DNA of 53,830 nucleotides from an uncultured Flavobacteriales bacterium (GTDB lineage: Bacteria > Bacteroidota > Bacteroidia > Flavobacteriales_D > CAJJDF01): assembly GCA_964021785.1 (NCBI GenBank), contig CAXIAX010000006.1:1-53830 (forward strand), written 5' to 3'. Made by a program: the position numbers and the translations under genes. Of this stretch, positions 6,768 through 28,548 are shown piece after piece. Positions within the stretch are counted from its first letter, which is position 1. Each line of letters begins with the position of its first letter. Under the pieces are notes generated by a model. That model did not search any database. It saw nothing but the letters and a program-made list of their open reading frames with translations, and was not told the DNA's origin.

Positions 6768-6777
6768 GACAGTAAAT

Positions 6778-9166: not shown

Positions 9167-9172
9167 TACAAC

Positions 9173-12100: not shown

Positions 12101-15100
12101 GGATTGGATATAAACGGTAACTTGAACAATCCAGAAACAAGATGGGGAGGGATAATGAGACAATTGCAAACTAATGACTTTGAAAATGCAAATATTGAAT
12201 ACATTCAATTTTGGGTAATGGATCCATTTAGTGGTAGCATAGGTACTAATCCTGATGCACAAAATACTTCGGGAGGAGAGTTATATTTCAACTTAGGTAA
12301 CGTATCTGAAGACATATTGAAAGATGGAACAAAATCATTTGAAAATGGTTTAACTACTGACGGCCTTTATGATCCTGCAACTTTATCTGTTACCTCTTGG
12401 GGAAGAATCCCTACAACACAACAAATAATTACTGCATTCGATAACAATCCAGCTACAAGACAATTTCAAGATGTTGGTTTGGATGGTCTTTCCAATGCGG
12501 ATGAAGCTGCATTTTTCTCTTCTTGGGTTGCTTGGGTAAATGCATCTGGATTGACTCCTGCAGCAAAAGCAAATTTATTAAGAGATCCTTCTGCAGATGA
12601 TTATACTTTCTATAGAGATGATAATTACGATAATTCTACGGCAAACATTATAGAGAGATACAAACGTTATAATGGATTAGAAGGAAACTCTGCAACTGAC
12701 GAACAATCTCAAAACATTAATGCTGAAGGATACCCAACTTCTAAAACAACCAGCCCAGATGTAGAAGATATTAACAGAGACAATAACCTGAATGAAACGG
12801 AAAGTTACTTCCAGTATAAGATAAACATGAAGTCAGGTTCTGACATGGAAATTGGACAAAACTTTATAGTAGATAAAGTACAAAGAGTGAATGATGTTAC
12901 TGGACAACCAGTAACGTGGTACCAATACAGAATTCCTGTAAAACAACCTACTAAAGTTGTAAATGGAATTCAAGATTTTAGATCTATTCGTTTCATGAGA
13001 ATATTTATGAAAGGATTCTCTGAGCCTGTAGTTATGAGATTTGCTCGATTAGAACTATTGAGAGGAACTTGGAGAAGATATGATGAAGACATAGTAGACG
13101 AAGGAGAAATCATTCAGTCTGATCCTTCTGGAACAATTTTCAATATATCGGCTGTGAATATTGAAGAAAATGGAAGTAGAGTTCCGATACAATATGCAAT
13201 ACCTCCAGGAACAATAAGAGAGATTAATCCAAATTCGGCTACGCAAGCAAACCTAAATGAGCAATCTTTAGAAATGGAAGTTTGTGGATTAGAAGACGGA
13301 ATTGCAAAAGCTGCATTCAGAAGTATTGATTTTGATGTATTGAATTACAAAAAAATTAAAATGTATGTGCACGGAGAAGAACACACAAGTAGTACGAATA
13401 TTGTAGGAGATGAAGACGTTACAATCTTTATTAGATTAGGAACCGATTTCAAATACAATTATTACGAATATGAAATGCCAATCAAGATGACAGCATGGGG
13501 AGCATCTAATCCTGATGATATTTGGCCAGAAGAAAACAACATGGAAATTGTGTTGGAAGAACTTAAACAATTGAAAATTGCTAGAAACAATGCACTAGGA
13601 TCTACAGCTTCTTCTTTTTTAAGTCTATTCGAATCTGCTTCTCCAAGAAATGCAAAACACATTATTAAAGTTATTGGTAACCCTAACCTTAGTGATTTAA
13701 AAACGATCATGATTGGAATAAGAAATCCAAACAAGAAAAAAGACCATCCTTGGAAACCGGACATAGGTGATGAAAAATGTGTTAAAATATGGGTGAATGA
13801 ATTAAGGATGAGTGATTTTGAAAACGAAGGTGGTTGGGCTGCCCAATCTCGTGTTCAAGCAAACTTAGCTGATTTTGCTACAGTATCATTGGCCGGATCT
13901 ATTAGTACTCCTGGATTTGGAGGAATAGAAGACAGAGTTAGTGAAAGACAAAGAGAAACGATAAAACAAGTAGATGCAACAACTAGTGTGCAATTAGGTA
14001 AATTCTTTGGGAAAGATGCTGGGGTAAATCTACCTATGTATTTAGGATTTTCACAAGGTACAATTGATCCTATGTTTGACCCTTTGAATCCAGATATAGA
14101 ATTTGAACAATCTTTAGAAGATGTATCTATAGAAGAACAGCAAGAAAGAATAAAAGCTGCAAGAGAAATAACAGTAAGAAGAAGTGTGAACTTTACCAAT
14201 GTTAGAATAACTCCAAAAAAGAGATCAGAAAAAGCATTCCCTTGGGATATAAAAAACTTTGGATTTACTTATTCTTACAATGAATTATACCGAAGAGATA
14301 TTCAAACTCAGTACAACACCACTAGAGAATACAATGGAGGATTGACTTACACTTATCAAACAAAATTAAAACCCTACACTCCTTTTAGAAACAATAAATT
14401 CTTGAGGTCTTCGCAATGGTTTAGAATAATAAGAGATATAAACATAAAGCCACTTCCAGAGCAATTTGCATTCAATACGAACATTGATAGAACTTATTCT
14501 GAAACAAGTGCAAGAGACATTACAGGGAACGCCTTAATTATCCCTCAGTTTTCTAAGACATTTACATGGGACAGGGTGTATAACATGAACTGGAAAATAA
14601 TGCAAGGATTGCAACTAAATTACAATGCAAATAACCAAGCGTTTATTCGTGAACCAGGAAACTTAAAGGTAGACAAAACACTTTATCCTGATGAATTTGA
14701 AATGAATAGAGATAGTGTTCTTGAAAGTTTTAAAAACCTAGGAGAAAACAACCATTATTTACAAACTGCAGATTTAACTTATACATGGCCATTTAAGAAA
14801 ATACCAGTATTAAATTTCATAAATCTTACGACTAAATACCAAACAACTTACGATTGGCAAAGAGCACCACTTTCGCAAGATTCATTGGGAAATACTATAC
14901 AGAACTCTAGAAACATAAACTGGACAGGTAATTTTGATATGAAAAACCTGTATGACAGAGTTCCTTATTTGAAGAAAGTGAATCAAAAAAGTCGTAGAGC
15001 TAGCAATTCTAGGCCGTCATTTGAAGCCCCAAAACCTGCACCTAAAGGAGATAAAGGGACTGGAGATGAAGAAGTAAAAGAGAAGAAAAAAGAAAAAGAT

Positions 15101-16531
15101 CCTAATAAATTAACTCTTGTTGATGGATTTGCCAAAGTATTGATGTCCTTACAAACCGTATCGTTCAATTACTCTACTATCGATGGACAATTCTTACCTG
15201 GGTATTCTCCAACAACAGATGTATTTGGATTAGGAAATAATTTCTCTGCTCCAGGAGTAGGATTTGTATTTGGGGGTGAACAAGAAAGAGACTTTTTTGG
15301 TCGTGAAACATCTAATGATTTTGCAGCAAAGGCAGCATTAAACGATTGGCTTGTTGGAGAAAGCAGCACATATATTAATGCACAAAGAACAACTAGCCAC
15401 AGCAAAAACTTTTCTACGAGAGCTACGTTAGAACCATTTAAAGGAATTAGGTTAGAGCTATCTGCCAACTATATTTACTCCGAAAATATGAATGAAAATT
15501 TCATTTATGCTTTAGACTCAAGTGATATGATGATGAGATATCAGCATTTCAATAGTATGCGATCTGGAAATTATAGTTATTCTTTTAACTCGATAAGAAC
15601 AGCTTTTCAACAAACTGATAGTGCAGGAAATTCTAAACTTTTTGATGACTTATTAAGGTACAGAAAACAAGCTTCTGATTTATTACACAATGATAATCCT
15701 TACTCTACCTCTGCATTAGATTCTAATGGATTTTATGACGGATATGGTAACAACCAAGCTCAAGTTATTATGTCTTCCTTCATTGCAGCATACTCTGGTA
15801 AAGAATTAACAAAGAAAACTCTTAATCCATTAAGTGCATTGCCTGCTCTTAACTGGAGATTGACAATTGACGGGTTGACAAGAATTCCTGCGATAAAGAA
15901 AGTATTTAAAACTTTAGTTATATCTCACGCCTACAATTCGACATTTACAGTAGCTAATTTCAATACAGATTTAGAAGCTGTAACCGATATTGATGGGAAT
16001 GATTTTGGAAGAGATGCTTCTAACAATATCAGACCAGAAAATCAAGTAATGGCTGTTTCTATAACGGAACAATTTAATCCACTTATTAAGATTAACATGA
16101 CTTGGAATAACAGTCTTAAAACTAATTTTGAATACAGATCTAACAGAAACATAGGGCTGAGTCTTACGAATAATCAAATTACAGAACTGAAGGGAACGGA
16201 GATTACTGTGGGAGCCGGATACAGATTTCAGAACGTAAAATTCCCAATTAAAATTGGAAAAAAACAACCCATAAGTGATATTGATGCACAAATTGATTTC
16301 TCATTGAGAAACAACAAAACTATCATTAGAAAAATAGATCAAGAACAAAATCAAGTTACGGCAGGACAAAGATACATTGCTATTAAAGCATCTGCTAACT
16401 ATGTATTGACTAAGCAATTTACATTAAGATTCTACTACGATAGAGTAATGACAAATCCATTTATCTCCACTTCATTCCCTACAATGAATCAAAATGTAGG
16501 ATTTGCAGTTAGAGTGAATTTATTTCAGTAA
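9173..16531 (+). CDS. sprA: T9SS outer-membrane translocon SprA/Sov
   Basis: 2452 aa; motifs FDFDQQIQ, FNYNTEATFDFEN, RWGGIMR, WVNELR; conserved ruvA-sprA linkage; TTG start. Confidence 0.95.
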   Translation: MKNKSKISSRAFLFIGFSCIFFFAFSKRRDEVTQPLFFENETEPKEINQPIDSPDVDLKYPFTSSNDPNKPKSSIVNLEEPLNIKRKIRYNATTGKYEFVSTIGDDNQYKEPFYMTLEEYRKYEQEKAKEEYWKTKIAEDNSTNSGDFAPKLAAKNREFGDICEGKLIDIQPQGSAELKFGLNTTRTDNPAIPVKQRQLTTFDFDQQIQLNVQGSICDKFNLNFNYNTEATFDFENQTKLAYEGSEDQILQKIEAGNVTYPIQNSLIQGSQSLFGIRTDLKFGKLNISTVISQNRGERKEINIKNGAQQQEYELPINTYEENKHYFINHYHRDNYDRAMSSLPNVSSQVRITKMEVWVTNRVNDVDDTRNIIAFSDLGEARVLEGSPTVNGPSNSVPYNDVNGLYNYLNTTPGTRNLTTSSSILASRTASPGPFVQSKHYEKLENARLLSTSEYNYNSILGYISLSQPLNNDEILGVSYQYTYQGKTYQVGEFSTDGIQGNDALFLKLLKGTVNSPTNKVWDLMMKNIYSIGAYQINAENFKLDIWYNNPKTGVEINYIPQTGVDTKTVLQLVGSDIINQQQQAFPDGVFDFIPLIYNGNKVENGGTINPQNGRIIFSKVEPFGSYLEQELLNAGVSATIANTIAYPQLYDSTKTLALQSPELNRFTIKGTYESANSSEISLNAFNIPQGSVTVTAGGVKLIENQDYTVDYNIGRVKILNDGVMNSGTPIKISLESNSLFTSIQKTMMGAHFDYEFNKNFNLGATMLRLSEKPMTQKVNIGDEPVKNTMLGINGNFQNEAPFLTKFVDNIPFINTKEKSSISASVEAAYLIPGHNNAISEEGESFIDDFEGSQSSIDIRSFNTWVLASTPQGQPDLFPEASLNNSLDYGKNRALFNWNVYDPSVFYEERGLVPSYIDADAIQNNNLMRLVQETELFNRSIDPTAGQIDRIAMFNLAYFPEERGPYNFDDNTSTVSAGLDINGNLNNPETRWGGIMRQLQTNDFENANIEYIQFWVMDPFSGSIGTNPDAQNTSGGELYFNLGNVSEDILKDGTKSFENGLTTDGLYDPATLSVTSWGRIPTTQQIITAFDNNPATRQFQDVGLDGLSNADEAAFFSSWVAWVNASGLTPAAKANLLRDPSADDYTFYRDDNYDNSTANIIERYKRYNGLEGNSATDEQSQNINAEGYPTSKTTSPDVEDINRDNNLNETESYFQYKINMKSGSDMEIGQNFIVDKVQRVNDVTGQPVTWYQYRIPVKQPTKVVNGIQDFRSIRFMRIFMKGFSEPVVMRFARLELLRGTWRRYDEDIVDEGEIIQSDPSGTIFNISAVNIEENGSRVPIQYAIPPGTIREINPNSATQANLNEQSLEMEVCGLEDGIAKAAFRSIDFDVLNYKKIKMYVHGEEHTSSTNIVGDEDVTIFIRLGTDFKYNYYEYEMPIKMTAWGASNPDDIWPEENNMEIVLEELKQLKIARNNALGSTASSFLSLFESASPRNAKHIIKVIGNPNLSDLKTIMIGIRNPNKKKDHPWKPDIGDEKCVKIWVNELRMSDFENEGGWAAQSRVQANLADFATVSLAGSISTPGFGGIEDRVSERQRETIKQVDATTSVQLGKFFGKDAGVNLPMYLGFSQGTIDPMFDPLNPDIEFEQSLEDVSIEEQQERIKAAREITVRRSVNFTNVRITPKKRSEKAFPWDIKNFGFTYSYNELYRRDIQTQYNTTREYNGGLTYTYQTKLKPYTPFRNNKFLRSSQWFRIIRDINIKPLPEQFAFNTNIDRTYSETSARDITGNALIIPQFSKTFTWDRVYNMNWKIMQGLQLNYNANNQAFIREPGNLKVDKTLYPDEFEMNRDSVLESFKNLGENNHYLQTADLTYTWPFKKIPVLNFINLTTKYQTTYDWQRAPLSQDSLGNTIQNSRNINWTGNFDMKNLYDRVPYLKKVNQKSRRASNSRPSFEAPKPAPKGDKGTGDEEVKEKKKEKDPNKLTLVDGFAKVLMSLQTVSFNYSTIDGQFLPGYSPTTDVFGLGNNFSAPGVGFVFGGEQERDFFGRETSNDFAAKAALNDWLVGESSTYINAQRTTSHSKNFSTRATLEPFKGIRLELSANYIYSENMNENFIYALDSSDMMMRYQHFNSMRSGNYSYSFNSIRTAFQQTDSAGNSKLFDDLLRYRKQASDLLHNDNPYSTSALDSNGFYDGYGNNQAQVIMSSFIAAYSGKELTKKTLNPLSALPALNWRLTIDGLTRIPAIKKVFKTLVISHAYNSTFTVANFNTDLEAVTDIDGNDFGRDASNNIRPENQVMAVSITEQFNPLIKINMTWNNSLKTNFEYRSNRNIGLSLTNNQITELKGTEITVGAGYRFQNVKFPIKIGKKQPISDIDAQIDFSLRNNKTIIRKIDQEQNQVTAGQRYIAIKASANYVLTKQFTLRFYYDRVMTNPFISTSFPTMNQNVGFAVRVNLFQ

Positions 16532-16541
16532 TTGAAGGATT

Positions 16542-16832
16542 TTAATTTCTTACTTTTTTTATAAACTTAAATTGTTTCTCTTCCATTTTTGAAAGTTCAT
16601 TAACCAAAGGATTACTGTTATTTTTTAAAAACTCGGTTAAGACAAAGTTTTTAAACTCCTTTTTATTTCGCATAAATTCTATTAAATCGAATTCTTCGTC
16701 TTCTTGATTGGACACAATAAGGTTAGTTAAATCTTCGGATAAAGCAATGCGAATAGATTCTAATAAAATATCATTGTATTTTAGAATCAACTGCTTTATT
16801 TTTTCCTTTTCTTCCATTCTTTTTAGTATCAT
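16542..16832 (-). CDS. Hypothetical protein (96 aa)
   Basis: ATG directly abuts the stop of the upstream metallophosphoesterase; no family recognised. Confidence 0.55.
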   Translation of the reverse strand: MILKRMEEKEKIKQLILKYNDILLESIRIALSEDLTNLIVSNQEDEEFDLIEFMRNKKEFKNFVLTEFLKNNSNPLVNELSKMEEKQFKFIKKVRN

Positions 16833-17648
16833 TTAAAAATCTATTTCTTTTCCTTGGTTTTTTGTTTCCTCTTCAGGAAGAATATCACAATTATCCCAAA
16901 TCCCCGTTTTCAGTGTCAATGAATATTGTGAGGGTAACTGTGCTTTTTCCATAAGGCTTGCAGCCGTATTGAAATCATACGCTAAGCTATGGTGAGTCAT
17001 TTCTATCTCTCCATTCACAACTTCTAATGTGGCGTACCACACAGTAGTATTCCCATCATTTGCAGGCATTCCAATAACTCCAGGATTAAGCCAAGTCTTA
17101 TTTTCATTTCTATCTACAAATGGCAATCCACAATGTCCTGCAATTATTACATCTGCCTCTGTTTTGGCAAAGTTAGGATCTTTTGTTTCCCAAGGAGAAG
17201 ATTTGAACACAAACTCCGAAATATTAAAATAAGAACCGTGTACAACTACACATTTTTTGTTCCCAAAAGTAAAACTTATGTTTAATGGAATAGTATCCAA
17301 CCAAGATTTTGTTTCTTCCGAAATATGAATTTGCGCATACGGATACCAAGTTTTTGATAAAGAATCGCAAGTTGTTCCTTCTTCAAAATCACATCCACAA
17401 TCTTCCTCCTCTTCTCGTAATTGCTGCTCTACATTTCCTGCAATAGATCTAATATTGTGTTTTCTCATTAACTGAGACACCTCTTCTGGCTGAGCACAAT
17501 ATCCAATAATATCTCCTGTACAAATTAGGTTAGAATAGGGAACTCCCAATTTATCGGCTTCTTTTAGCAAAGCTTCTAGTGCTTGTAAATTGGAATATAC
17601 TCCTCCAAACAAAATTACTTTTCCTTCTATATTTCCTAATTCTTGCAT
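16833..17648 (-). CDS. Divergent Cys-rich calcineurin-like metallophosphoesterase
   Basis: Motif order FGGVYSN / TGDIIGY / AGNVE / VHGS / AGHCG / NPGVIG; insert DCGCDF..TCD. Confidence 0.85.
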   Translation of the reverse strand: MQELGNIEGKVILFGGVYSNLQALEALLKEADKLGVPYSNLICTGDIIGYCAQPEEVSQLMRKHNIRSIAGNVEQQLREEEEDCGCDFEEGTTCDSLSKTWYPYAQIHISEETKSWLDTIPLNISFTFGNKKCVVVHGSYFNISEFVFKSSPWETKDPNFAKTEADVIIAGHCGLPFVDRNENKTWLNPGVIGMPANDGNTTVWYATLEVVNGEIEMTHHSLAYDFNTAASLMEKAQLPSQYSLTLKTGIWDNCDILPEEETKNQGKEIDF

Positions 17649-19009
17649 TACGATTTTTGAGGTTTTGTTGATACTAATTTAGGGATAAAAAATAAAATTA
17701 CTGCTCCTACAAGTCCAATCAAATTGGCAGATAATAAATCGGCATATTTCCCTGTAGAAAAATGAAGACTGGTTGGGTAATTACCTGTGGCCAAAACTAA
17801 GCCCAAAATAATTCCGAAAATTACGGGTAAATAGAAGGATAAAGGATTGGCTTTTATTTTCCAAAAAATAAAAACTGGAGCTAATCCCACTACCATTGTT
17901 CCACTTATTGTGGTAGCAGAAAGAATGGTTGGATTCATAAAAATAGGCAAGGTTCCTGCCACGGCAATTAAAATCATCATCCACCTACCCGACTGTACCG
18001 GTTTTTTAGTTTTTAAATTCATGTCCTCTACCACCAATTTAGAAAAAGAAGAAAAAGCTGAATCTAAAGTAGAACTTGCTGAAGTAATCATGATAAAATT
18101 CATGGCCAACATAATAAGTACTCCTCCTGATTTTGCTACCTCAACAGCAGCCTGACCTGCCACTCCGTTAAACTGACCATATACTCCAATTAAACTAAAC
18201 AAAACGATTGCAACAAATCCAATTATTGCGGCTGCAATAAAACTTTTTAGAGTTGTTTTGGGATCACTAATAAAAGCTCTATCCGTCATTACGGAATCAT
18301 GAAAAGGGTAACTAAATACTTGTAAAAAGGCAACTAAAATAAAGTTTACTCCTTGGTCCATTTGCCAACTTCCTGAGTTTAGGTAGTCGGAAACTCCTTC
18401 GTTTCCTGTAGGTAGAATTACTCCTAGAATTAGAATGAGTAAAAAACCAAAGAATAATATTTGAATTAAATCGGTAAGTAAAGAACTTCTTAGTCCTCCT
18501 TTCAATACGTAAGCCAAAGTGATTACTGTGAACACTGAGATAGATAAATAATAAGAGTTAGAACCTACTTCGCCAAAATAACTCCCGATAACCATACTGT
18601 TGGACCAAACTTCGTTAAACAGCCTTATTCCTATTAAAAATGAAAAAATAAGAACGGCATATTTTCCGTACTTGGTAGTTAAAAAATGGTGAATGCTTTT
18701 AAACTTTCCGTTCACACGCATTTTATACAAAACAATTCCAGCCACTAGAAACGAAAAATAATAAACTCCGTATCCTATACCTCCCACAATACCAAATTCT
18801 AACCCTAAGTTTGCTGCATTGGTAATTGATTTAGCAAAAATCCAAGAGATTACTAAACTACTGGTAAGGAGAATAAAATTGGGCTGTTTCCCTTTGAGAG
18901 AAACTGCAGAAAAAAATTGGTTTCTAGTTTTAGAAAAAGGTGCTATAAGAAAAAACAACACCCCAAAACTCACCAAAATTATCCATTGCCAAGAAAGTGA
19001 ATCAATCAT
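17648..19009 (-). CDS. Sodium:solute symporter (SSS)-like transporter
   Basis: About 13 hydrophobic segments; SLVISWIFAKS, KGGLRSSLLTDLIQ, ASSTLDSAF motifs; TAATG overlap with the next gene. Confidence 0.85.
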   Translation of the reverse strand: MIDSLSWQWIILVSFGVLFFLIAPFSKTRNQFFSAVSLKGKQPNFILLTSSLVISWIFAKSITNAANLGLEFGIVGGIGYGVYYFSFLVAGIVLYKMRVNGKFKSIHHFLTTKYGKYAVLIFSFLIGIRLFNEVWSNSMVIGSYFGEVGSNSYYLSISVFTVITLAYVLKGGLRSSLLTDLIQILFFGFLLILILGVILPTGNEGVSDYLNSGSWQMDQGVNFILVAFLQVFSYPFHDSVMTDRAFISDPKTTLKSFIAAAIIGFVAIVLFSLIGVYGQFNGVAGQAAVEVAKSGGVLIMLAMNFIMITSASSTLDSAFSSFSKLVVEDMNLKTKKPVQSGRWMMILIAVAGTLPIFMNPTILSATTISGTMVVGLAPVFIFWKIKANPLSFYLPVIFGIILGLVLATGNYPTSLHFSTGKYADLLSANLIGLVGAVILFFIPKLVSTKPQKS

Positions 19010-19088
19010 TTATTATTGCTTTTTTCTAGTTCTTAAAGGTATTACTATATTTTATATTCATCTATTTGTATTGAGAAGTGCTTATTAT

Positions 19089-20531
19089 TTAAAATACATC
19101 CCACCATACTTTTTTGTTTACGCTATTATCACCTCCAGTAGCGGCATTAAAATTGGCACTATTTAGTGTTGCTTCATCTGTTGGGTAAGGCATTTTTACG
19201 GGAAATAAATTACTGTTCAAACTAGCCGAAAGTTGTTTCAATTGAGGAAATCCTGTTCTGCGGTATTCAATCCAACTCTCATATCCATTGATGGAGTTTG
19301 CAATCCATTTTTGGGTAATTATTTGTTCTAGCGTATTGGCTCCAAAGTTTCCAAATGCAGAAGAATCTGTAGTTAAATAAGTAGAAGGTAAAGTTGCTCC
19401 CCAATATTCGAAAGCCAAGGTTACTCCATTGTCGTAATGCATTTGAGGAGAAGAGGCAATTAATCCTTTTTGAGCTGCTTCTGCCAACAACAATTCGGTT
19501 TCCCAAGCTGTCATGAAATTTGCATCTAATCTAGCCGTATTTTCTCTAAAAATCGTTCCTCCCAATGAATAATCCGATACTGTAACGGATGTTGCTGAGG
19601 CATCTTGCCCGTTCAATAATCCTTCATACCTCATTCCCGTAGAATCACTACTTATTGGTTTGTAAAGTACCGCTCTTCTTGGGTCGTTATATTTATTAAG
19701 AATTTCTTCGGCCGTAAGGCTCATCACAAATAAATTGAAATCCCCATCTCTTAGTTTTGCCATTCTAAAATTATTAGGCTGTCCGTCAGTAAAGTCAAAA
19801 GTGGCATTTTCTATGTTGGATTTTAAATACAACCCAGAGTTCAATACACTTTGTAGTCTTCCCGAAACGGTATCCACATCCGACATTCTAATTAAATATT
19901 TAATCTTAAGAGAATTGGCAAACTTTATCCAGTTGTTTAAATCTCCATTACACAATATATCTCCGTTCAAGGATTGAGCCCCTGCATATCCGTTTATCGA
20001 AGCAATTCCTTTGTTTAAGTTGTCAATTATTCCTCCTGCACTTTTATAAATATCTTCTTGTTTGTCGTATTTAGGAGCAATATTCCCTTGGCTTCCTTTC
20101 AATGCATCCGAATAAGGAATATCTCCGTAAATATCGGTTAGCATTCCTGCCAAATATGCTTTTAAGATTAATGCTGGTCCTTCATAAACTTTATACACTT
20201 CATTGTTTTGTGCTTGTTCTAGCACCACATTATTATCTCTCATGTTTTTGTACAGAGTTGGCCAAGGGTTTCCTCCGTATTGAGTTTCTAGCAAACTATG
20301 GCGATCAAATAAATTGAAATCTACCATGGTGTAATATTGCCCCAACACATTTCCTGCAACAAAACCTTCGTATGCCATTTCATCACCTACATTATAAATC
20401 ACTTGCCTTAGCACCAAACTAGGTTCTACTGTAGTTGGTGAATTTGGATTTGTATTTATATCCTCAAAATCTTTTTTACAACTACTTAATAGTACCAAAA
20501 GTATTACTGCAATCTTTCCTATATTTTTCAT
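19089..20531 (-). CDS. SusD/RagB-like nutrient-binding lipoprotein
   Basis: Lipobox LSSCKKDFEDINTNPN; TDIYGDIPYSDA; EQIITQKWIA..WIEYRRTGFP; start set at MKNIGK. Confidence 0.92.
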   Translation of the reverse strand: MKNIGKIAVILLVLLSSCKKDFEDINTNPNSPTTVEPSLVLRQVIYNVGDEMAYEGFVAGNVLGQYYTMVDFNLFDRHSLLETQYGGNPWPTLYKNMRDNNVVLEQAQNNEVYKVYEGPALILKAYLAGMLTDIYGDIPYSDALKGSQGNIAPKYDKQEDIYKSAGGIIDNLNKGIASINGYAGAQSLNGDILCNGDLNNWIKFANSLKIKYLIRMSDVDTVSGRLQSVLNSGLYLKSNIENATFDFTDGQPNNFRMAKLRDGDFNLFVMSLTAEEILNKYNDPRRAVLYKPISSDSTGMRYEGLLNGQDASATSVTVSDYSLGGTIFRENTARLDANFMTAWETELLLAEAAQKGLIASSPQMHYDNGVTLAFEYWGATLPSTYLTTDSSAFGNFGANTLEQIITQKWIANSINGYESWIEYRRTGFPQLKQLSASLNSNLFPVKMPYPTDEATLNSANFNAATGGDNSVNKKVWWDVF

Positions 20532-20550
20532 AACTCTTTTGTCTATTCTA

Positions 20551-23500
20551 TTAAAAATCAAACCCTACTTTAAACCCAATACTTCTTGCCGTAGGGTAAG
20601 ACATATCTTCCACCCCACTCACAAAGTTTTGACCTTGTACCGCAACTTGCTCCGGATCAAAGTGTGGTGTATTGCTAATTGCAAATAAATTTCTTCCTAT
20701 TACTGCAACCCTCAATGTTCTTCCATCTCTAAAGAAATTTGTTTTTTCATTTCCTCTAAAAGTATAACCAATAGAAAACTGCCTTAACTTAAGGTAAGAA
20801 GCATCCAATGTGTTATTTTCTTCGTGGTTTCTGTCGTAATATTGTCTGTAATAAGTTTCTGCAGATACTGCTGTCGTATTTTTTTCCCAAACTGGGCTTC
20901 CTTCTGTTCCCACATTCACTACTCCTTCCGCTACTATTCCTTCATCTGGCCTATATTCAGTTTCTTCTAACTGACCAGCAACACCTGCAAGAGCAAGTGT
21001 TCTCGATACCAAAACACCTCCTTGTCTCCAATCAAATAAGAAACCTAAATCCCAATTTTTGTAAGTAAAACTATTGTTGAAACCAATGATAAAATCTGGG
21101 TTGTAATTCCCTAACTTCTTTAGCGTATTATCCACCACATACTTTCCGTCTCCATCAATTACAAAATCACCATTTTCATTTTTCAAATATCCCGTACCAT
21201 ACATATCTCCCACTCTACCTCCTTGCTCTACCTGAAACCAAACTCTTTGATTCACATTATCATAAACTCCAGAATATGCCAAGGTCAATTTATCTACTCC
21301 TTCTGGCAATTCCTTAATCTCAGAAACATTTCTACTGAAATTTGTCCCTATATTCCATGTAAAATTCTTTCTTTTCATTACTTGAGCATCCAATAGAATT
21401 TCTAATCCTCTTGTATTTACTTTTCCTCCATTCACAACTTTTTCTGTTGCCCCAGATGAAATTGCTACGGGTAATGAAATAATTTGATTGCTTGTAGTGG
21501 CATTGTAATAAGTTACATCCAATCTTATTCTATTTTTAAAAAACCTTATATCTGTTCCTATTTCATAAGAAGTTGTTCTCTCTGGTAATAGATTATTATT
21601 CGCCAATAAATCTTGCGAAGCAAAAGTAGGTTGCGAGTTATAGGCAGTTTGTGCCACAAAAGCTGTAGAGGTTTGATATGGATCGGTATCATTTCCAACT
21701 GCAGCCCAATTGGCTCTTATTTTTGCAAAAGAAATGTATTTGGGCAGCTTAATTGTATTAGACAAAATATAACTAAGCGAAACTGAAGGGTAGAAAAAAG
21801 AAACATTTTCTGTAGAAATTGGAGTTGCCAATGCACTAGACCAATCGTTTCTTCCGGTAACATCTAAGTATAAAAAATCTTTGTATCCTACTCTTGCAAT
21901 TCCATACATGCTGTTTATTCTTTTTCTAAAAGTATATTGGTTGGCTTCTATTGGTGAAGCTGCATTGGATAAATTGAAAATACCTGGTTGAGCCAAAGAA
22001 AGAGTTTGTAATTGAGTATTACTTCCTTGTTGGTCCATTCGGTTTCCTCCGGCCGAAATATCAAATGTAAAATCATTAGCAATCTTAGTATAGTTAAGTA
22101 ATACATCTGTATTGTTTTCTCTAAAAAACACAGAGTGCTCTGCATAGGCTCCACTTCTAAATCTATTACTGCTGTAATTTCTTTTGAACTCTCGCAACTC
22201 GTTAGAATAATCCATTCCCGACCTCAACATAAGTTTCAAATTATCTGTAAAATTGTAGGTAGCCGCTATATTTCCATAAACTCTATCTCTGTTGAATGAG
22301 TTTGTATTCTCGTAAAGAATAAAATAAGGATTATCAAAATAAGTGTAATTAAAAGAATACTGTTCTATCCCTTCTAAACCGGGTTGCCAATAATCTTTCA
22401 TGTTTTCTATATTCAATGATCTTGGTCCCCAAGCTACCAAGGAATAATTAATATTTTCTGACCCATAACCGTTAGATGGCCTATTGTCACTCCTAGAGTT
22501 TACATAATTAATAGAGGTGGTAACTTTTAACTTATTGGTAGGATTAAAATTAAGTTTAGCTGCAAAATTATTTCTATCCAGATTCACTCCTGGAATAAAA
22601 GAAGTGCTTCTTAAATCTGTGAAGGAAAAACGATAATTTCCTTTATCAAAACTATTTTCTAAGGCAATATTATTCATTAACGTAACTCCAAATCCATAGA
22701 AATTTTTTAAATTATCGGGATTAGAATTAAAGTCTGTAGGAGTAATTGGCAAACCTCCATGCACTGCAATATCTCCTCCTCTTACTTGCGTTCCATCTGC
22801 CAAATACACAGGACTATCATATTGTGCTATTTTCAAGCCTGCATCTAATCTTGGGCCCCAACTGTAAGATATATTATCATTTACTCCTCCTCCAAGTCCA
22901 TCTACATAAGTAAACTGACCCGAATTTCCTTGACCATAAGTGTTTTGAAATTTTGGTAAACGAAATGGTGTTTCTATAAACGTAGAAGAATTTATTGAAA
23001 CGCCCAATCCTTTGCTGCTTTTACCGTTCTTAGTGGTAATTAATATCACACCATTAGATGCTCTTGTACCATACAAAGCAGCAGCACTTGGCCCTTTCAA
23101 TACCGATACCGATTCTATATCATCTGAATTAATAGACATAGCTCCATTTCCAAAATCTACCTCTTGAAAACCTGCCGCAGCATCTGTCGTAAAATTATTG
23201 ACTGAATTGTTGTTGATTGGGATTCCATCCACAACAAAAAGTGGATTATTATTGGTGAAAGAAGATTCTCCTCTTAGTGTGATTTTTGAAGTAGAACCAA
23301 CTCCTGTAGGACCTTGGCTAATTGTTAAACCGGCTACCTTACCGGCTAAATTATCTACAAAATTTACCGATTTTACATCCGAAATTTCTTTAGACTCAAC
23401 AATCTCTATAGCGTATCCCAATTTTTCTTCTTGGCTCTCTTGACCCAATGCCGTAATCACAGTTTCTCTTAATAGTACACCATTTTCTTTAAGCGATACA

Positions 23501-23766
23501 TTAAGTATTGTGTTTCCGTTTACTGCAATGGTATCAGAAAAGAAACCTAGACTTCTAAACACCAAAATTGCATCTGTAGCCACTGTAATTTGATACTCTC
23601 CATTCTCATTGGCTATTGTACTTGTTTTGGTTGTTTTCTCATACACCAAAGCTGCAGGAATAGGCTCAGAGGTTTCTGCATCTATCACTGTACCTGTTAC
23701 GGTAACTTGTGCACTTAGTAGTTGAGTAAAGAAAAGTAAACATATCCAGTAATATTTTTTCATCAA
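20551..23766 (-). CDS. SusC/RagA TonB-dependent transporter
   Basis: PLFVVDGIP, SVLKGPSAAALYGTRASNGVILITTK signature; C-terminal Phe; followed by susD. Confidence 0.95.
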   Translation of the reverse strand: MMKKYYWICLLFFTQLLSAQVTVTGTVIDAETSEPIPAALVYEKTTKTSTIANENGEYQITVATDAILVFRSLGFFSDTIAVNGNTILNVSLKENGVLLRETVITALGQESQEEKLGYAIEIVESKEISDVKSVNFVDNLAGKVAGLTISQGPTGVGSTSKITLRGESSFTNNNPLFVVDGIPINNNSVNNFTTDAAAGFQEVDFGNGAMSINSDDIESVSVLKGPSAAALYGTRASNGVILITTKNGKSSKGLGVSINSSTFIETPFRLPKFQNTYGQGNSGQFTYVDGLGGGVNDNISYSWGPRLDAGLKIAQYDSPVYLADGTQVRGGDIAVHGGLPITPTDFNSNPDNLKNFYGFGVTLMNNIALENSFDKGNYRFSFTDLRSTSFIPGVNLDRNNFAAKLNFNPTNKLKVTTSINYVNSRSDNRPSNGYGSENINYSLVAWGPRSLNIENMKDYWQPGLEGIEQYSFNYTYFDNPYFILYENTNSFNRDRVYGNIAATYNFTDNLKLMLRSGMDYSNELREFKRNYSSNRFRSGAYAEHSVFFRENNTDVLLNYTKIANDFTFDISAGGNRMDQQGSNTQLQTLSLAQPGIFNLSNAASPIEANQYTFRKRINSMYGIARVGYKDFLYLDVTGRNDWSSALATPISTENVSFFYPSVSLSYILSNTIKLPKYISFAKIRANWAAVGNDTDPYQTSTAFVAQTAYNSQPTFASQDLLANNNLLPERTTSYEIGTDIRFFKNRIRLDVTYYNATTSNQIISLPVAISSGATEKVVNGGKVNTRGLEILLDAQVMKRKNFTWNIGTNFSRNVSEIKELPEGVDKLTLAYSGVYDNVNQRVWFQVEQGGRVGDMYGTGYLKNENGDFVIDGDGKYVVDNTLKKLGNYNPDFIIGFNNSFTYKNWDLGFLFDWRQGGVLVSRTLALAGVAGQLEETEYRPDEGIVAEGVVNVGTEGSPVWEKNTTAVSAETYYRQYYDRNHEENNTLDASYLKLRQFSIGYTFRGNEKTNFFRDGRTLRVAVIGRNLFAISNTPHFDPEQVAVQGQNFVSGVEDMSYPTARSIGFKVGFDF

Positions 23767-23827
23767 AAATTAATTAGGGGCGGCAGTTAGTATGATTGGT
23801 AAAGGGAAATAGTCGCACAACCTTATT

Positions 23828-23835
23828 CAAACTTA
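23828..23835 (-). promoter_or_regulatory. -7 promoter element for the susC operon
   Basis: TAAGTTTG on minus strand about 60 bp upstream of the susC start. Confidence 0.55.
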
Positions 23836-23914
23836 CGAAAACGAATAGATATTGGATTGAAATGAAAAGAATAAACAAATCTAGATTATCACTTAGTTTT
23901 CATTCGTTAGAGAA

Positions 23915-24628
23915 TTAAAAAGTAGTATTATCTATTTTAATTTTGTAAATACTTGATTCATTAAATTTTAAATATGAATCTTTATTAAATTTATCGTACA
24001 CGGCTTTTGGTATTCCAAGATCTGCGACATACAAATGTGTCCTTTTTAATTGAGGCAAAAAGAAAATCTCTTTTGGTGCCGCAAGAGATAATACTGCAGT
24101 AGGTTCAAAATACTGTGTGCTATTTTCATCAAACAGGCCTGTGGGTAAATCAAGGCTTATTTTTACACAAGGAATCTTATTGCTATACTCTATAAATTCA
24201 ACTATGTTATTCCTTAGTGGCGGCTTTTGAGAAAACCCTAACATTGCATCCACTATTAGTTGTGGACTCCCTTCTGGTAATTCATTGATGACTCCAAACT
24301 TTATAGCTCTTTCAAATTGCTTTGCAGGCAGTCCCTTCAGATTATTGCTTATCAATTTTATATGCACTTTGTATCCCCAAGCAGCTAAACGTCTTGCGGC
24401 TACACTTCCCCCTCCTCCATTATTTCCCGAACCTACCAATATAACTACTGGAAGACTTTTATCTATCGTGTATTTAGATACTAATTTTGCAAGATGAAGC
24501 CCTGCGTTTTCCATCATTAACTCTATAGGCAAATCGTAATTTTCTACTGCATAATAATCCATTTCTCTAAATTTATCAAGACTTAGAGATTGATCTCTTC
24601 TTATACTTATTTCAGGATATAAAAACAT
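23915..24628 (-). CDS. nnrE: Stand-alone NAD(P)H-hydrate epimerase (YjeF N-terminal domain)
   Basis: MMENAG, GSGNNGGGG, IVDAMLG, SLDLPTG, ADLGIP; no dehydratase domain; start set at ATG 24628. Confidence 0.85.
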   Translation of the reverse strand: MFLYPEISIRRDQSLSLDKFREMDYYAVENYDLPIELMMENAGLHLAKLVSKYTIDKSLPVVILVGSGNNGGGGSVAARRLAAWGYKVHIKLISNNLKGLPAKQFERAIKFGVINELPEGSPQLIVDAMLGFSQKPPLRNNIVEFIEYSNKIPCVKISLDLPTGLFDENSTQYFEPTAVLSLAAPKEIFFLPQLKRTHLYVADLGIPKAVYDKFNKDSYLKFNESSIYKIKIDNTTF

Positions 24629-24658
24629 TTTGTTGTTGTTTAGATTCAAGGAAAGGGC

Positions 24659-25144
24659 CTATTCTGTGAATTTGAAATTATATATCACACCAAGAGAAAA
24701 AGTGCTTTGACTTAATTCTCCCGTGATATATTTATACTCAATAAAGGGCATGAAATTTTTAACCTCCAAATGCATTCCGGCTCCAATTGCTGCTCCCATA
24801 GCTTTGTTGGTATGTGTATATCCTAAATATTCACTTTCTTCTACACTATAATTAATTCCAAGTAATGGATACAAGCCTACTTCTTCTTTTATTTCGAAAA
24901 TGTAATGAACCACAAAACCATATTCATTAAGCTGAATTGATTCACTACCGTGAGTTACCTTAGGGAAGTAAGAAAATTCTGGACCAAAGCATATTTGTTC
25001 GTTTAATCCGTAATAAACTCTAGCATTCACTCCTACTTGCTCTATATCCGTTCCGTAAATTCCTCCTGCACCTACCATTATAGATTGAGAACTAGAAACA
25101 TAAGACTGAACTAAAAACAGTAAAAGTGTTGCATATTTTATCAT
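24659..25144 (-). CDS. Small outer-membrane beta-barrel protein
   Basis: Signal peptide, alternating amphipathic beta strands, ends GVIYNFKF; ATGA overlap with upstream gene. Confidence 0.75.
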   Translation of the reverse strand: MIKYATLLLFLVQSYVSSSQSIMVGAGGIYGTDIEQVGVNARVYYGLNEQICFGPEFSYFPKVTHGSESIQLNEYGFVVHYIFEIKEEVGLYPLLGINYSVEESEYLGYTHTNKAMGAAIGAGMHLEVKNFMPFIEYKYITGELSQSTFSLGVIYNFKFTE

Positions 25145-25893
25145 GAGTTAAATTTGCTTTTAGCTTCATTTAAAAACACGAGTGCATTTTCTACTTCAAT
25201 GTTTGTTGAAGCCAAAGTAGCTCCATTCCAATCGGATCTCCATTCACCCACTTTCATTTCTCCGAAGTTTTTGGTTACTATTCCGTTTCCATTTTTATAC
25301 CCAGAGGCATAAAAATAAAAATCATCTACCAGTGAATCTGGTATTGCCAAACCAGCTCCCATAAATGTATTCTCGGATTCTAATTCGGCATAGATTCCTA
25401 AATCAAAATGATGTGGCCATACTCTTATTGGTGATTCTAACTTCTGTTTTGCCAAAAACTGTTCGAATGTATTTTGAGCTTTAGTTAATTCATTAGAAAT
25501 TTTCAATAAATCTTTAGAATCTAAGGAATAAGTGTAATCCTTAGTCACTTCATCATACGGTAATTCATAATGAAAACTATATGAATAAGCCTGTGAGATA
25601 TTGTTTTGTTTGGCTTGATCAGAAATCCAAAGAACAATTTCGTTATGGTTTTTTGAGTTTAGCTCAATATCACTTGTAACACTTCCATTGTTTAACCACT
25701 CAATTTTGGCTGTATTTAAGTTTACTCCCAATTGATTTTTATCTCCAAAAACATGAGTTTCCATTCTATTCTCAGCTTTATTCCAACCTACATTGGTATG
25801 GCTATCGTCCGATTTTTTTTCAAGAAAGCTAATCCCTGCGGCAGCTAAATATTGTGCTGCTTGGTGTAAATTTTGTATTGTTTGTTTCATCAT
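25141..25893 (-). CDS. Conserved hypothetical protein (DUF5996-like)
   Basis: DDSHTN, VWPHHFDLG and PD..YFYASGY motifs; TAATG coupling to upstream gene. Confidence 0.6.
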   Translation of the reverse strand: MMKQTIQNLHQAAQYLAAAGISFLEKKSDDSHTNVGWNKAENRMETHVFGDKNQLGVNLNTAKIEWLNNGSVTSDIELNSKNHNEIVLWISDQAKQNNISQAYSYSFHYELPYDEVTKDYTYSLDSKDLLKISNELTKAQNTFEQFLAKQKLESPIRVWPHHFDLGIYAELESENTFMGAGLAIPDSLVDDFYFYASGYKNGNGIVTKNFGEMKVGEWRSDWNGATLASTNIEVENALVFLNEAKSKFNS

Positions 25894-27509
25894 TATTTTA
25901 TAAATCCTGCGTAATTAATTCCTGTTAAATAATACATCTCTCTACTAAGCGTAGACAAATCATCTTTATTAAATTGACTAATATCACTATAGCCACATGC
26001 ACGAGCAATGATTTTAATAAGGTCATTAGACGAATTAAAAAATCGTTCTAATCTTTTTGCCGCTAGGTTTATTTCTATTCTTTGCCTCAGATTTTCTTTT
26101 TGAGTAGCTATTCCAACTGGGCAATTATTGGTACTACAAGCTCTCATTCCTAAACAACCTATTGCTTGCAATGCAGAATTAGAGACGGCTATAGCATCCG
26201 CTCCTAACATAAGTGCCTTAGCAAAATCATCTGCAATTCTTAATCCTCCAGTAATAACTAACGAAACGTCTTTAACTCCTTGATCATCCATAAACTTTCT
26301 AGCCCTTGCTAATGCTGGAATGGTAGGGACATTAATGTTGTTTTTCAAAATATCTGGAGCTGCTCCTGTTCCTCCACCTCTTCCATCAAGAATAATATAA
26401 TCTGCCCCTGCCTCTAGAGCAAAAGCTAAATCTTTTTCTAAATGACTAGCCGCCAGTTTAAATCCAATTGGGACTCCTCCAGAAATCTCTCTTACTTTAT
26501 CACCAAATCTTCTGAAATCTGCAGCTGTTTTTAAATCGGGATCCGTAAAAGTAGCTGGAGATATAGCCGAAACTCCTTCTTTCAACCCTCTCACTTTTGC
26601 AATTTCGCCTTGTACTTTATTTCCTGGCAAATGACCGCCTGTTCCTGTTTTTGCTCCTTGTCCTCCTTTAAAATGAAATGCTTGAATATTCTCTAATTTA
26701 TCCCAAGAAAAGCCAAATTTGGCTGAAGCTAATTCGTATAGGTATTTAGAATTTTCCGCTTTTTCATCCGGTAACATACCTCCTTCACCAGAACATATTC
26801 CTGTTCCAGCCAATTCAGCTCCTTTTGATAAGGCTATTTTTGCTTCTCTTGATAAAGCCCCAAAACTCATATCTGATACAAACATTGGAATATCAAGTAT
26901 TAATGGTTTTTTGGCCCTTGGTCCAATTACTACTTTTGTAGATACTGAATCTTCATCCAACAAGGGCTTATTTGCCATTTGAGCAGGTAAAAACTGAATG
27001 TCTTCCCATTTTGGAAGGGTATTTCTATCTACTCCCATAGAAGAAGTAAATCCATGTTTCCCTACATTTTTCAATCCATTAGCTGCCAATTCTTTTATAT
27101 AACCTGTATAAGGTTCTGTGTCTTCGGGATGGGTATCTGCATAAGCTCCTTGGTAATCATCTCTATTAAATGCAGGTGGATTTTTAACTTTAAAAGCATC
27201 AATTTCTTCCAAGTCAACACATAAGTCATCTCCTACCACATGGGCAGTAAATTTATTAAGTACTTCCTTATTGTTATACTCACTAACCCCAGTATCGTAT
27301 CTATAATCCCATCCGTGCAAACCACAAATTAAATTCTCACCATCAAGATGGCCATCTGCCATTAATGCTCCCCTGTGAAGGCATCTTCCATACAGAATAG
27401 AATAATCATTTTCATATTTCACAACTACAAGATCTATCTCATTAACTAATGCATGAGTTGGTGTTTTTTCTTCAATTTCACTAAGTTTTAGTATAGGTTT
27501 TATGTTCAT
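25893..27509 (-). CDS. Rieske [2Fe-2S] domain fused to FMN-binding glutamate synthase-like domain
   Basis: Rieske CLH..CGLH; MSFGALS, SGEGG, GQGAKTG, DGRGGGTGA; CLGMRACSTNNC cluster motif; no amidotransferase domain; start set at MNIKP. Confidence 0.88.
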   Translation of the reverse strand: MNIKPILKLSEIEEKTPTHALVNEIDLVVVKYENDYSILYGRCLHRGALMADGHLDGENLICGLHGWDYRYDTGVSEYNNKEVLNKFTAHVVGDDLCVDLEEIDAFKVKNPPAFNRDDYQGAYADTHPEDTEPYTGYIKELAANGLKNVGKHGFTSSMGVDRNTLPKWEDIQFLPAQMANKPLLDEDSVSTKVVIGPRAKKPLILDIPMFVSDMSFGALSREAKIALSKGAELAGTGICSGEGGMLPDEKAENSKYLYELASAKFGFSWDKLENIQAFHFKGGQGAKTGTGGHLPGNKVQGEIAKVRGLKEGVSAISPATFTDPDLKTAADFRRFGDKVREISGGVPIGFKLAASHLEKDLAFALEAGADYIILDGRGGGTGAAPDILKNNINVPTIPALARARKFMDDQGVKDVSLVITGGLRIADDFAKALMLGADAIAVSNSALQAIGCLGMRACSTNNCPVGIATQKENLRQRIEINLAAKRLERFFNSSNDLIKIIARACGYSDISQFNKDDLSTLSREMYYLTGINYAGFIK

Positions 27510-27646
27510 ATAACTGGTTTTTGAACTAGTAAGATAGAGGAGAATAATTTTAATCCTTTTAAAAAACTCATTTATTTTTACCAAACATACTCTAGCCGAC
27601 ATATCCACAATGTATACTTCTTATATATTTTCATTAGATTAGTGAC

Positions 27647-28321
27647 ATGAACAAAAACGCTAAATATTGGTTTCTTGAAAACTTTGATTTCATGAAGAAG
27701 CTAGGAAAAAATGATTTAATGAAATTATCTGATTCATTAGAAATGGTTTATTTAAAGAAGGGAGATTTAATTCAGTATTCACAAAAACCTGATCAATTAG
27801 TCATATTTCTAAAAAAAGGATCTGTTAAAATAGTAAATCGCTCAACAGAGGCTGTCAAATATATAATTGGAGAAGGAAATGTTTTTGGCGTATTGAATTT
27901 GAATGAAAACAATATCGACCCCGTATCCGAAGAAGTAGCAATTTGTCTTGAAGAGACTATGATTTGTTACATCCCCAAAGAAGAAATGAGAAGTATTTTA
28001 AAGGAATATCCATCTTTAAAAAACTCAATCATAAAAATTCAATCTTTAAGAATTAATAGACTAGAAAGAAGACTGTCGGACTTATTATACAAATCTAGCA
28101 ACTTACGAATAAAAGAGTTCATTTATTCATTCGCTAAAAACTATGGCCAGAAAAATGGAAAAATCATCCATGTAAAAAACACTCTTACCCATAAGGATAT
28201 AGCTCACCTTACCAACACATCTAGACAAACAGTAAACAATGTAATCTCTAAAATGAGAAAGCAAGGAGAGATTGAATACTCCAGAAAAGAAATAACAATA
28301 CTAATTGACTTTGGTGCATAA
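27647..28321 (+). CDS. Crp/Fnr-family transcriptional regulator
   Basis: cNMP-like domain (LKKGSVKI..GNVFG) and HTH LTHKDIAHLTNTSRQTVN. Confidence 0.92.
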   Translation: MNKNAKYWFLENFDFMKKLGKNDLMKLSDSLEMVYLKKGDLIQYSQKPDQLVIFLKKGSVKIVNRSTEAVKYIIGEGNVFGVLNLNENNIDPVSEEVAICLEETMICYIPKEEMRSILKEYPSLKNSIIKIQSLRINRLERRLSDLLYKSSNLRIKEFIYSFAKNYGQKNGKIIHVKNTLTHKDIAHLTNTSRQTVNNVISKMRKQGEIEYSRKEITILIDFGA

Positions 28322-28414
28322 ACAGATTAAAAAATAATCTGTAATCAACTAACATAAATCTTGTTACAACTAAAAAAAAGAAAAAATCGTCTTCATTTAA
28401 TTTCTTATTAAAAC

Positions 28415-28453: not shown

Positions 28454-28457
28454 ATAC

Positions 28458-28533: not shown

Positions 28534-28548
28534 AGCCTTAATCGGATG

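Follow-up and report, generated by a model that had tools for sequence, protein, structure and literature searches.

The window analysed here is the whole 53,830-nt stretch of contig CAXIAX010000006.1 from the assembly of an uncultured Flavobacteriales bacterium (GCA_964021785.1). Five co-oriented open reading frames (ORFs) on the minus strand fill positions 16542–23766: susC (23766–20551), susD (20561–19089), a permease gene (19009–17648), a gene for a Cys-rich metallophosphoesterase-like (MPE-like) protein (17648–16833), and a small gene termed orf96 (16832–16542). An initial annotation of this DNA had listed susC, susD, a sodium:solute symporter (SSS), a metallophosphoesterase, and a 96-aa ORF in one orientation, and all five are indeed found there. 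The conserved unit is formed by four of these genes (susC, susD, permease, and MPE-like), which are referred to as the module. We propose, with a probability of roughly 0.6, that the module is an accessory uptake-and-handover branch which feeds the cell's own ArsS pathway, rather than a glycan locus or a stand-alone scavenging system.

The susC gene codes for a SusC/RagA-type TonB-dependent outer-membrane transporter of 1071 aa (TIGR04056, 587.3 bits, cut-off 368.25) with the TIGR04057 signature, a plug (59.7 bits), a barrel (65.2 bits), and a CarboxypepD_reg domain, while family scans detected no N-terminal STN signalling domain. The SusD-like surface lipoprotein (490 aa as listed) matches PF12771 SusD-like_2 with 287.6 bits and PF12741 with 194.2 bits. 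Its lipobox, LLSSC, was read by eye from the translation, and its probable start is Met11 at 20531, where the lipoprotein signal MKNIGKIAVILLVLLSSC begins. The overlap between susC and susD hinges on an upstream TTG; a start at Met11 leaves a 19-nt gap instead. The permease (453 aa) is a divergent SSS-like inner-membrane protein whose matches to this family are weak and below the cut-offs (PF00474, 16 vs. 22.8 bits; TIGR00813, 31.5 vs. 184 bits). In the Atlas, it neighbours clusters that bear the name sodium:solute symporter and in which 42–53% of the members carry SSF. The MPE-like gene codes for a catalytically degenerate protein of 271 aa with a metallophosphoesterase fold (Metallophos_2). 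Translational coupling had been proposed for the last three genes of the row. The permease stop and the MPE-like start do overlap as TAATG; for orf96, the conserved start is Met6, 15 nt further on, and not the abutting ATG.

General family scans (a dedicated CAZyme library was not run) revealed no domain of a carbohydrate-active enzyme (CAZyme) or regulator in the five proteins, and no CAZyme domain in six scanned neighbour genes either. A dedicated sensor-regulator (a hybrid two-component system, SusR, or an extracytoplasmic function sigma/anti-sigma pair) is absent from 16542–23835; a gene of the Crp/Fnr family is located 4 kb upstream (27647–28321, plus strand). This agrees with the initial annotation, which had reported neither a glycoside hydrolase nor a lyase nor a regulator and had concluded that this is not a normal polysaccharide utilisation locus (PUL). 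As in PULs, a SusC/RagA barrel and a SusD-like lipoprotein are encoded side by side and in the usual order. In contrast to PULs, neither a dedicated regulator nor any glycoside hydrolase, lyase, or esterase turned up in the family scans of the locus, and the partner genes code for a permease and a cytoplasmic Cys-rich protein. The locus works like a SusCD-type nutrient importer, yet it fails the definition of a PUL because it has neither a CAZyme nor a regulator.

Searches for expression signals gave no more than chance numbers. A sigma-70 scan returned 42 sites where 49 were expected from shuffled sequences (the consensus is ill-suited to Bacteroidota), and 7 terminators were predicted as against 6.7 expected from shuffles. 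Among RNA datasets, none is listed as containing the locus. No riboswitch or leader was detected in 16000–29000 at E values up to 1, where the only matches were the tRNA described below and three sub-threshold chance hits, and none of relevance reached the gathering score in seven related loci. A second genomic copy of any of the five proteins was not found by tblastn. The 2.88-Mb genome encodes one full-length SusC, all other tblastn matches being confined to the N-terminal 230–318 residues at 25–27% identity. A TonB-dependent receptor of 784 aa is encoded elsewhere in the window (46590–48944).

To place the module in a wider context, a profile of 18 MPE-like proteins (A1) was used, which yielded 581 confirmed relatives in species genomes, and the analysis was continued with the top 80 loci. 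These are the best scorers and not a random sample; most belong to named genera of Flavobacteriaceae, and others to Saprospiraceae, Chitinophagales, and Cytophagales. Carriers of the full cluster include cultivable genera such as Polaribacter, Winogradskyella, Dokdonia, and Christiangramia. The permease gene adjoins the MPE-like gene in all 80. Further genes were counted by tblastn over those 58 loci in which each flank measures 8 kb or more (long-flank loci). The permease is present in 58 of these, a DUF2064-type gene in 57, and susC and susD in 54 each. The arrangement of the locus is therefore not due to chance, given the adjacency in 80/80 and the presence of susC and susD in 54/58 loci. 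Of the arsenosugar gene set and its neighbours, TIGR04282 is found in 53, ArsS within 10 kb in 52, and TIGR04169 in 52 loci, followed by a purine nucleoside phosphorylase (46), the rhodanese NF045521 (42), DUF547 (40), a fatty-acid hydroxylase (29), TIGR04283 (28), and arsenosugar-type ArsM (20). ArsS is absent from six long-flank loci (L019, L042, L063, L072, L087, and L093). The initial annotation had pointed to flavobacterial clusters in which arsS, arsM, and TIGR04282/TIGR04283 genes occur with a similar SusCD pair, an SSS transporter, and a Cys-rich phosphoesterase, and these counts confirm that association. The full-text literature searched (subscription journals being outside its coverage) contained no paper in which ArsS or arsenosugars are linked to SusC/SusD, to an SSS permease, or to a metallophosphoesterase.

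The gene order recurs as well. A TIGR04169 peroxidase-like gene and ArsS are followed by a DUF2064/TIGR04282-like paralogue, susC, susD, the permease, and the MPE-like gene; next come the rhodanese NF045521, TIGR04282, purine nucleoside phosphorylase, and sometimes arsenosugar-type ArsM (the cluster ArsM scores 576 bits on NF038099); fatty-acid hydroxylase, DUF547, and TIGR04283 form the end. The block from SusCD to the MPE-like gene is thus located in the middle of the cluster. In seven loci (L034, L044, L048, L055, L059, L168, and L171), susC, susD, and the DUF2064 paralogue are jointly missing, and the permease/MPE-like pair either directly follows ArsS or stands alone. This joint absence points to the pair as the core and to SusCD as an add-on. 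SusC from the window is 62–65% identical to its counterparts in most related loci and 73–75% identical to those of two family mates; for SusD the range is 54–71% across most loci and lower in some. Identities of 62–75% across families far exceed what paralogous SusC proteins of PULs share, and this degree of conservation of SusC and SusD suggests one invariant small ligand rather than a variable glycan. Among metagenome contigs, near relatives were found at 16 loci, all with at most 62% identity; relatives of 77–79% identity (P0002 and P0003) and one of 69% (P0004) exist.

The genome of the window (2.88 Mb, 203 contigs, 98% complete) carries the ArsS gene set on three other contigs. ArsS (TIGR04167, 451.5 bits, cut-off 300) is encoded beside TIGR04169 (190.2 bits, cut-off 120) on contig C46, the rhodanese NF045521 beside TIGR04282 (183.4–183.7 bits, cut-off 134) at the end of contig C60, and DUF547 beside TIGR04283 (194.8–195.2 bits, cut-off 182) on contig C3. 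Two purine nucleoside phosphorylase genes are also present. Arsenosugar-type ArsM (NF038099) was not found in the genome, the best match reaching 98 bits against a cut-off of 400. This best match is a 350-aa, ArsM-like methyltransferase which scores 180 bits on the generic arsenite methyltransferase model NF008823 (cut-off 263). By association, the locus is a member of the ArsS gene set; in this genome, however, the module and ArsS are not clustered but on different contigs.

These findings bear on the view, taken in the initial annotation, that only import and processing genes are present and that the organism is a scavenger rather than a producer. According to this view, an organism unable to make arsenosugars takes up those of algae, or a related phospho-metabolite, and gains a nutrient when the phosphoesterase cleaves the phosphodiester head group. 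The separation of the locus from any biosynthetic gene in this genome, the phosphoesterase fold of the MPE-like protein, and the fact that arsenosugar-phosphate is a phosphodiester are all in its favour. However, an arsS gene set, which the initial annotation itself had named as the finding that would refute the scavenger-only view, is present elsewhere in the genome, with ArsS, TIGR04169, TIGR04282, and TIGR04283 all above their cut-offs (the ArsM-like gene alone stays below), so that neither the restriction to import genes nor the assignment as a non-producer can be upheld. Considering also the distribution of the module, the residues of the MPE-like protein, and its fusions, all described below, we give very little credence to a catabolic scavenger.

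The distribution of the module was investigated at two levels. Among 40 relatives, an MPE-like orthologue (E < 1e-90) occurs in the sister genus (both of its species) and once outside the family, while none of the 12 congeners has one; a 29–31% identical paralogue is found in two further genomes. ArsS is encoded in 12/12 and TIGR04282 in 10/12 congeners. An even sample of 401 genomes from the order of the window contains 23 with the MPE-like gene at the same threshold and 144 with ArsS, and all 23 are among the 144 (hypergeometric probability 1.8e-11, which is overstated since kin are not independent; the 23 genomes represent 14 genera). For the 22 module genomes besides that of the window, the fetched flanks hold susC and susD in 20 and the DUF2064 paralogue in 17 cases, and ArsS in none. 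The ArsS gene of these genomes is on another contig in 19 cases and on the same contig in three, at distances of 22 kb, 0.79 Mb, and 3.0 Mb. Clustering with ArsS is thus seen in 52 of the 58 best-scoring related loci but in 0 of the 22 module genomes from the same order. The 80 named loci and the 22 sampled genomes do not overlap, and the sampled module proteins are at most 68% identical to those of any named locus. The module is nested within ArsS genomes whether linked to ArsS or not, and most ArsS genomes do without it; this is the pattern of an optional add-on.

That no module genome lacks ArsS (0/23) argues against a catabolic scavenger. It also bears on a second explanation, namely that this is an ordinary SusCD locus for nutrient uptake or phosphate scavenging (its cargo being, for instance, nucleotides or phosphoesters), which came close to ArsS through shared islands. 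Such a locus could well reside in a variable region beside a tRNA gene, as is the case here; SusCD pairs for non-glycan cargo which are devoid of CAZymes exist; and the nearest relatives of the MPE-like gene differ from those of susC, susD, and the permease. Shared islands do not readily account for a co-occurrence of 23/23 with ArsS although the genes are unlinked, nor for the fusions of the MPE-like domain to pathway enzymes. Moreover, the MPE-like protein shows no visible signal peptide and lacks the catalytic residues. We thus consider an ordinary nutrient locus very unlikely.

Arsenosugar-type ArsM is encoded in 50 of the 401 genomes of the order sample. Of the 23 module genomes, 1 has it, as compared to 48 of the 121 genomes that have ArsS but no module (Fisher p = 0.0006, with kin not being independent), and this depletion hints at the import of a pre-methylated arsenical.

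The MPE-like protein matches Metallophos_2 with 44 bits (cut-off 27), Metallophos with 26 bits (cut-off 21.5), and PDB entry 3rqz with E = 2.5e-14. None of the curated NCBIfam equivalogs matched, and no signal peptide is visible in the translation. A fold-level profile is shared with calcineurin-like metallophosphoesterases of the 3rqz, YfcE, and PrpE/ApaH kind, but the full motif set of these enzymes (D-x-H, GD, GNH[DE], H, GH, GHxH) is not retained. In the profile alignment to 3rqz, D-x-H of motif I is replaced by G-x-Y, the His of GNH by Val (GNV), and the second His of GHTH by Gly (GHCG), while GD of motif II, GN of motif III, the His of motif IV, and the first His (that of GH) are kept. 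Conservation was counted over 103 Bacteroidota members. G15, G16, S19, N20, D46, N72, V73, E74, H137, and H172 are invariant (103/103) and Y18 is found in 102/103, so the loss of D-x-H and of the GNH His is common to all members, which argues against a phosphoesterase that splits a head group. Half of the phosphoesterase metal site is kept (D46, N72, H137, and H172). By the standard ligand assignment, this is the M2 half-site, whereas the M1 half-site has lost three of its four ligands, and the catalytic His is missing as well.

The protein has also gained a cluster of Cys residues. C51, C84, C86, and C94 are invariant (103/103) and C173 is found in 90/103 members, which bears out the description of the phosphoesterase as Cys-rich in the initial annotation. 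The stretch DCGCDF...C has no counterpart in 3rqz; this insert and the Cys after motif II, both invariant in the MPE-like family, set it apart from the calcineurin-like enzymes. C84, C86, and C94 form a C-x-C motif with a third Cys eight residues on and are flanked by acidic residues. As judged from motif positions, with Cys residues immediately following motifs II, III, and V, these residues are likely to surround the former active site. A C-x-C motif with a third Cys is a classic ligand set for As(III), as in ArsR and ArsD, which have vicinal Cys triads and an unrelated fold. On the strength of this resemblance we favour a thiol-based role of the MPE-like protein, which may bind, reduce, or hand over a trivalent arsenical. 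An assignment to TIGR04168 was considered and rejected: the protein does not match the model, and 0 of 41 relatives score above the cut-off. No protein of the genome matches TIGR04168, while the control genome, that of Synechococcus elongatus, does.

The association with the pathway extends to protein fusions. A search of 1.84 billion representatives of 50% clusters returned 184 MPE-like relatives at E values up to 1e-30. The GG-x-YSN and DCGCG motifs are kept in most of these wider relatives, as judged from the window protein and 16 of the 150 best representatives. Fifteen of the longer proteins among the 150 best (358–673 aa) were scanned against Pfam, and 12 of these against NCBIfam. In P0275, the MPE-like domain is fused to an arsenosugar-type ArsM (465 bits, above the cut-off of 400) and in P0256 to TIGR04169 (145 bits, above the cut-off of 120). 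The partner in P0290 is a TIGR04282-like domain below the cut-off (117 vs. 134 bits), and that in P0365 is a fragment of a family 2 glycosyltransferase which is above no cut-off. Radical SAM domains are fused in P0278, P0312, P0311, and P0373. These match best to the Rv1681 family (82–267 bits, below the cut-off of 380); the ArsS model scores lower (47–60 bits, second-best in three of the four), so that they are not ArsS by score. As a set, the fusions tie the MPE-like protein to the pathway enzymes, beyond transport, and the biosynthetic nature of the partners does not fit a catabolic scavenger. The Cys-rich MPE-like proteins represent an uncurated family which is likely a component of the pathway.

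The arsenic assignment itself has a competing explanation. The ArsS-family cluster of Bacteroidota might make a 5'-deoxyadenosyl or ribosyl product that is modified with sulfur, selenium, or otherwise, or the cargo might be a precursor or acceptor, for example a nucleoside; the arsenic names would then have been carried over from cyanobacteria. The rhodanese NF045521 (42/58) and the purine nucleoside phosphorylase (46/58) are regular members of the clusters, arsenosugar-type ArsM is missing from 38/58, and no arsenic resistance gene was seen in the annotated clusters. Furthermore, only cyanobacterial ArsS has been functionally tested according to PMC13598754. On the other side, ArsS from this genome reaches 451 bits on an equivalog model with a cut-off of 300, and P0275 joins the MPE-like domain to a methyltransferase which passes the arsenosugar-ArsM model. 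The thiol triad also resembles a classic ligand set for As(III). We consider a non-arsenic cargo to be rather improbable, although less so than the two explanations discussed above.

In cyanobacteria, ArsS adenosylates trivalent dimethylarsenic, DMAs(III), to 5'-deoxy-5'-dimethylarsinoyl-adenosine (DDMAA), as stated in PMC13598754. The genome of the window resembles the cyanobacterial arsenosugar pathway (ArsM and ArsS) in having ArsS above the equivalog cut-off together with its TIGR04169, TIGR04282, and TIGR04283 partners, and such clusters enclose the module in 52 of 58 related loci. It differs in that TIGR04168 and arsenosugar-type ArsM were not found, and the pathway as described includes neither an uptake system nor an MPE-like protein.

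From these observations we arrive at the reading given at the outset, an uptake-and-handover branch that supplies the ArsS pathway of the same cell. At the surface, the SusD lipoprotein and the TonB-dependent SusC barrel would take up a small compound that is scarce and chemically invariant, the SSS-like permease would move it over the inner membrane, and the cytoplasmic MPE-like protein would bind or convert it. The product would then pass to the cell's own ArsS, TIGR04169, TIGR04282, and TIGR04283 enzymes. It is highly probable that the module belongs to the ArsS pathway. Whether it is an importer of an arsenic compound is evenly balanced, and a methylated arsenical as the cargo is a tentative proposal. 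The analysis shows the gene content of the module, its conservation and linkage, its nesting within ArsS genomes, the domain fusions, and the degenerate active site; from these we infer the direction of flow, the presence of arsenic in the cargo, and the thiol role of the MPE-like protein. The likeliest cargo would be either an arsenical that is already methylated, for instance dimethylarsinate, or a compound derived from arsenosugars.

Several points weigh against this reading. The module is absent from 121 of the 144 ArsS genomes in the order sample and from all 12 congeners, so it is dispensable for the pathway. The idea that the module replaces methylation is weakened by Flavobacteriaceae-type clusters, in which ArsM and the module occur together in 20/58 cases, and an ArsM-like gene is present in the genome of the window (98 bits to NF038099) as well as in 12/12 congeners (about 92–106 bits). 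For so small a molecule as dimethylarsinate, import by SusCD would be unusual. In this genome, the DUF2064 paralogue which usually heads the module is missing, with a YjeF_N gene in its place. Finally, the fused forms are predicted proteins, some of which may be gene-calling artefacts.

A more specific version of the proposed uptake branch is possible, if doubtful: marine Bacteroidota may have a dedicated high-affinity route for organoarsenicals (SusCD plus an SSS-type permease), with the new family of Cys-rich proteins, which have a half-dismantled phosphoesterase fold, binding or reducing the cargo and handing a trivalent arsenical to ArsS. Dimethylarsinate or another methylated arsenical, released by phytoplankton, would be the likeliest cargo, and cells without arsenosugar-type ArsM would build arsenosugars or arsenosugar lipids from borrowed methylarsenic. 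Arsenic is generally held to enter bacteria by accident, through the transport of phosphate or glycerol, and then to be detoxified. If the proposal is true, this would be the first arsenic importer that serves biosynthesis and does not reflect such an accident; heterotrophic marine bacteria would acquire an arsenic-related compound deliberately, and the module would provide a genetic handle on the makers and recyclers of marine arsenosugars and arsenolipids. The 12 congeners, which have ArsS genes but not the module, offer a natural comparison to the organism of the window.

The fifth ORF, orf96, had been counted as part of the locus, and this is not supported. Its first ATG directly abuts the stop codon of the MPE-like gene. 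However, similarity to the corresponding region of congener G003 begins at Met6 (ATG at 16817–16815), 15 nt past that stop codon, and the abutting start is thus a by-product of taking the first ATG of the frame. The 14 homologues have 59–135 aa, mostly 84–91 aa, and family scans of orf96 gave no match. A homologue adjoins the MPE-like gene in 0 of the 80 related loci. Congener G003 lacks the module, yet it has an 80% identical homologue in the same place beside sprA and convergent with it. We therefore consider orf96 a small conserved protein outside the module.

The module is part of a variable region of about 11.6 kb (16833–28400), which four congeners lack and which was delimited by blastn against five congeners, tblastn, and family scans. 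On its left side is sprA (9173–16531, plus strand; PF14349 SprA_N, 581.8 bits), which codes for the translocon of type IX secretion and shows 71–81% nucleotide identity to the five congeners by blastn. It is the last of the gliding and type IX secretion genes (gldB, porW/sprE, and sprA) that occupy 643–16531. The right border is formed by tRNA-Phe(GAA) (28458–28533, minus strand; ARAGORN; Rfam tRNA, 71.3 bits). In congeners G005, G006, G001, and G012, blastn places a conserved segment of 90–180 nt downstream of sprA, no more than about 100–150 nt from the 3' end of the gene. This segment corresponds to 28404–28587 of the window and holds tRNA-Phe in the window, G005, and G006 (ARAGORN). The gap between sprA and the tRNA is thus 11.6 kb in the window and devoid of an insertion in G005 and G006, while G003 carries PAS histidine kinases, a response regulator, and the orf96 homologue at the same site. 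Within the genus, the sprA/tRNA-Phe gap is thus a hotspot of variation.

Misassembly does not explain the insertion, as independent contigs bridge its junctions and the read depth is even over the island and its flanks. Contigs from runs X2, X3, and X5, which belong to different studies, span sprA, orf96, the MPE-like gene, and the permease; each of these three runs also supplied contigs that extend from within the island to the tRNA. In contigs from three runs other than that of the window, an additional T follows 23896, between the YjeF_N gene and susC. Like a tRNA-associated genomic island, the region is missing from close relatives at a conserved site beside a tRNA gene. Family scans detected no integrase domain among the island proteins, and of 27 direct-repeat families, the 20 largest were listed and include no convincing border repeat.

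In FastTree phylogenies with midpoint root, susC, susD, and the permease branch with two family mates (G013/G014; support 1.0, 1.0, and 0.99), whereas the MPE-like gene branches with a metagenome-assembled genome from Cryomorphaceae inside a Flavobacteriaceae-type clade (0.88 and 0.95). Given these discordant gene trees (window vs. L155, L156, and L015), the module may be a mosaic. In family mate G014 (locus L156), the module starts at 3929, which is 0.6 kb after a tRNA-Phe(GAA) at 3220–3295, and its order is DUF2064 paralogue, susC, susD, permease, and MPE-like. This neighbourhood reflects either the same target site or the ancestral position. The insertion may accordingly have been kept since the family ancestor and lost elsewhere in the genus, or it may have been re-acquired from a relative at the same tRNA.

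Upstream of the module, the island carries five further genes. A stand-alone YjeF_N gene (NAD(P)H-hydrate epimerase-like; 23915–24649, minus strand) is directly upstream of susC. It is followed by an outer-membrane beta-barrel protein (24659–25144), orf250 (25141–25893), a 571-aa protein (25893–27608, minus strand) that combines a Rieske [2Fe-2S] domain (PF00355) with a glutamate-synthase-type flavin mononucleotide (FMN) domain (PF01645), and the Crp/Fnr regulator already mentioned. All five were rejected as module members: the Rieske/FMN gene was found in 1 of the 80 related loci and each of the other four in 0. The Rieske/FMN gene has a 71% identical DNA match elsewhere in congener G012. Beyond the island, three extra genes of the window lie between tRNA-Phe and lnt; they code for a YHYH protein (28705–29538) and for proteins of 206 and 219 aa.

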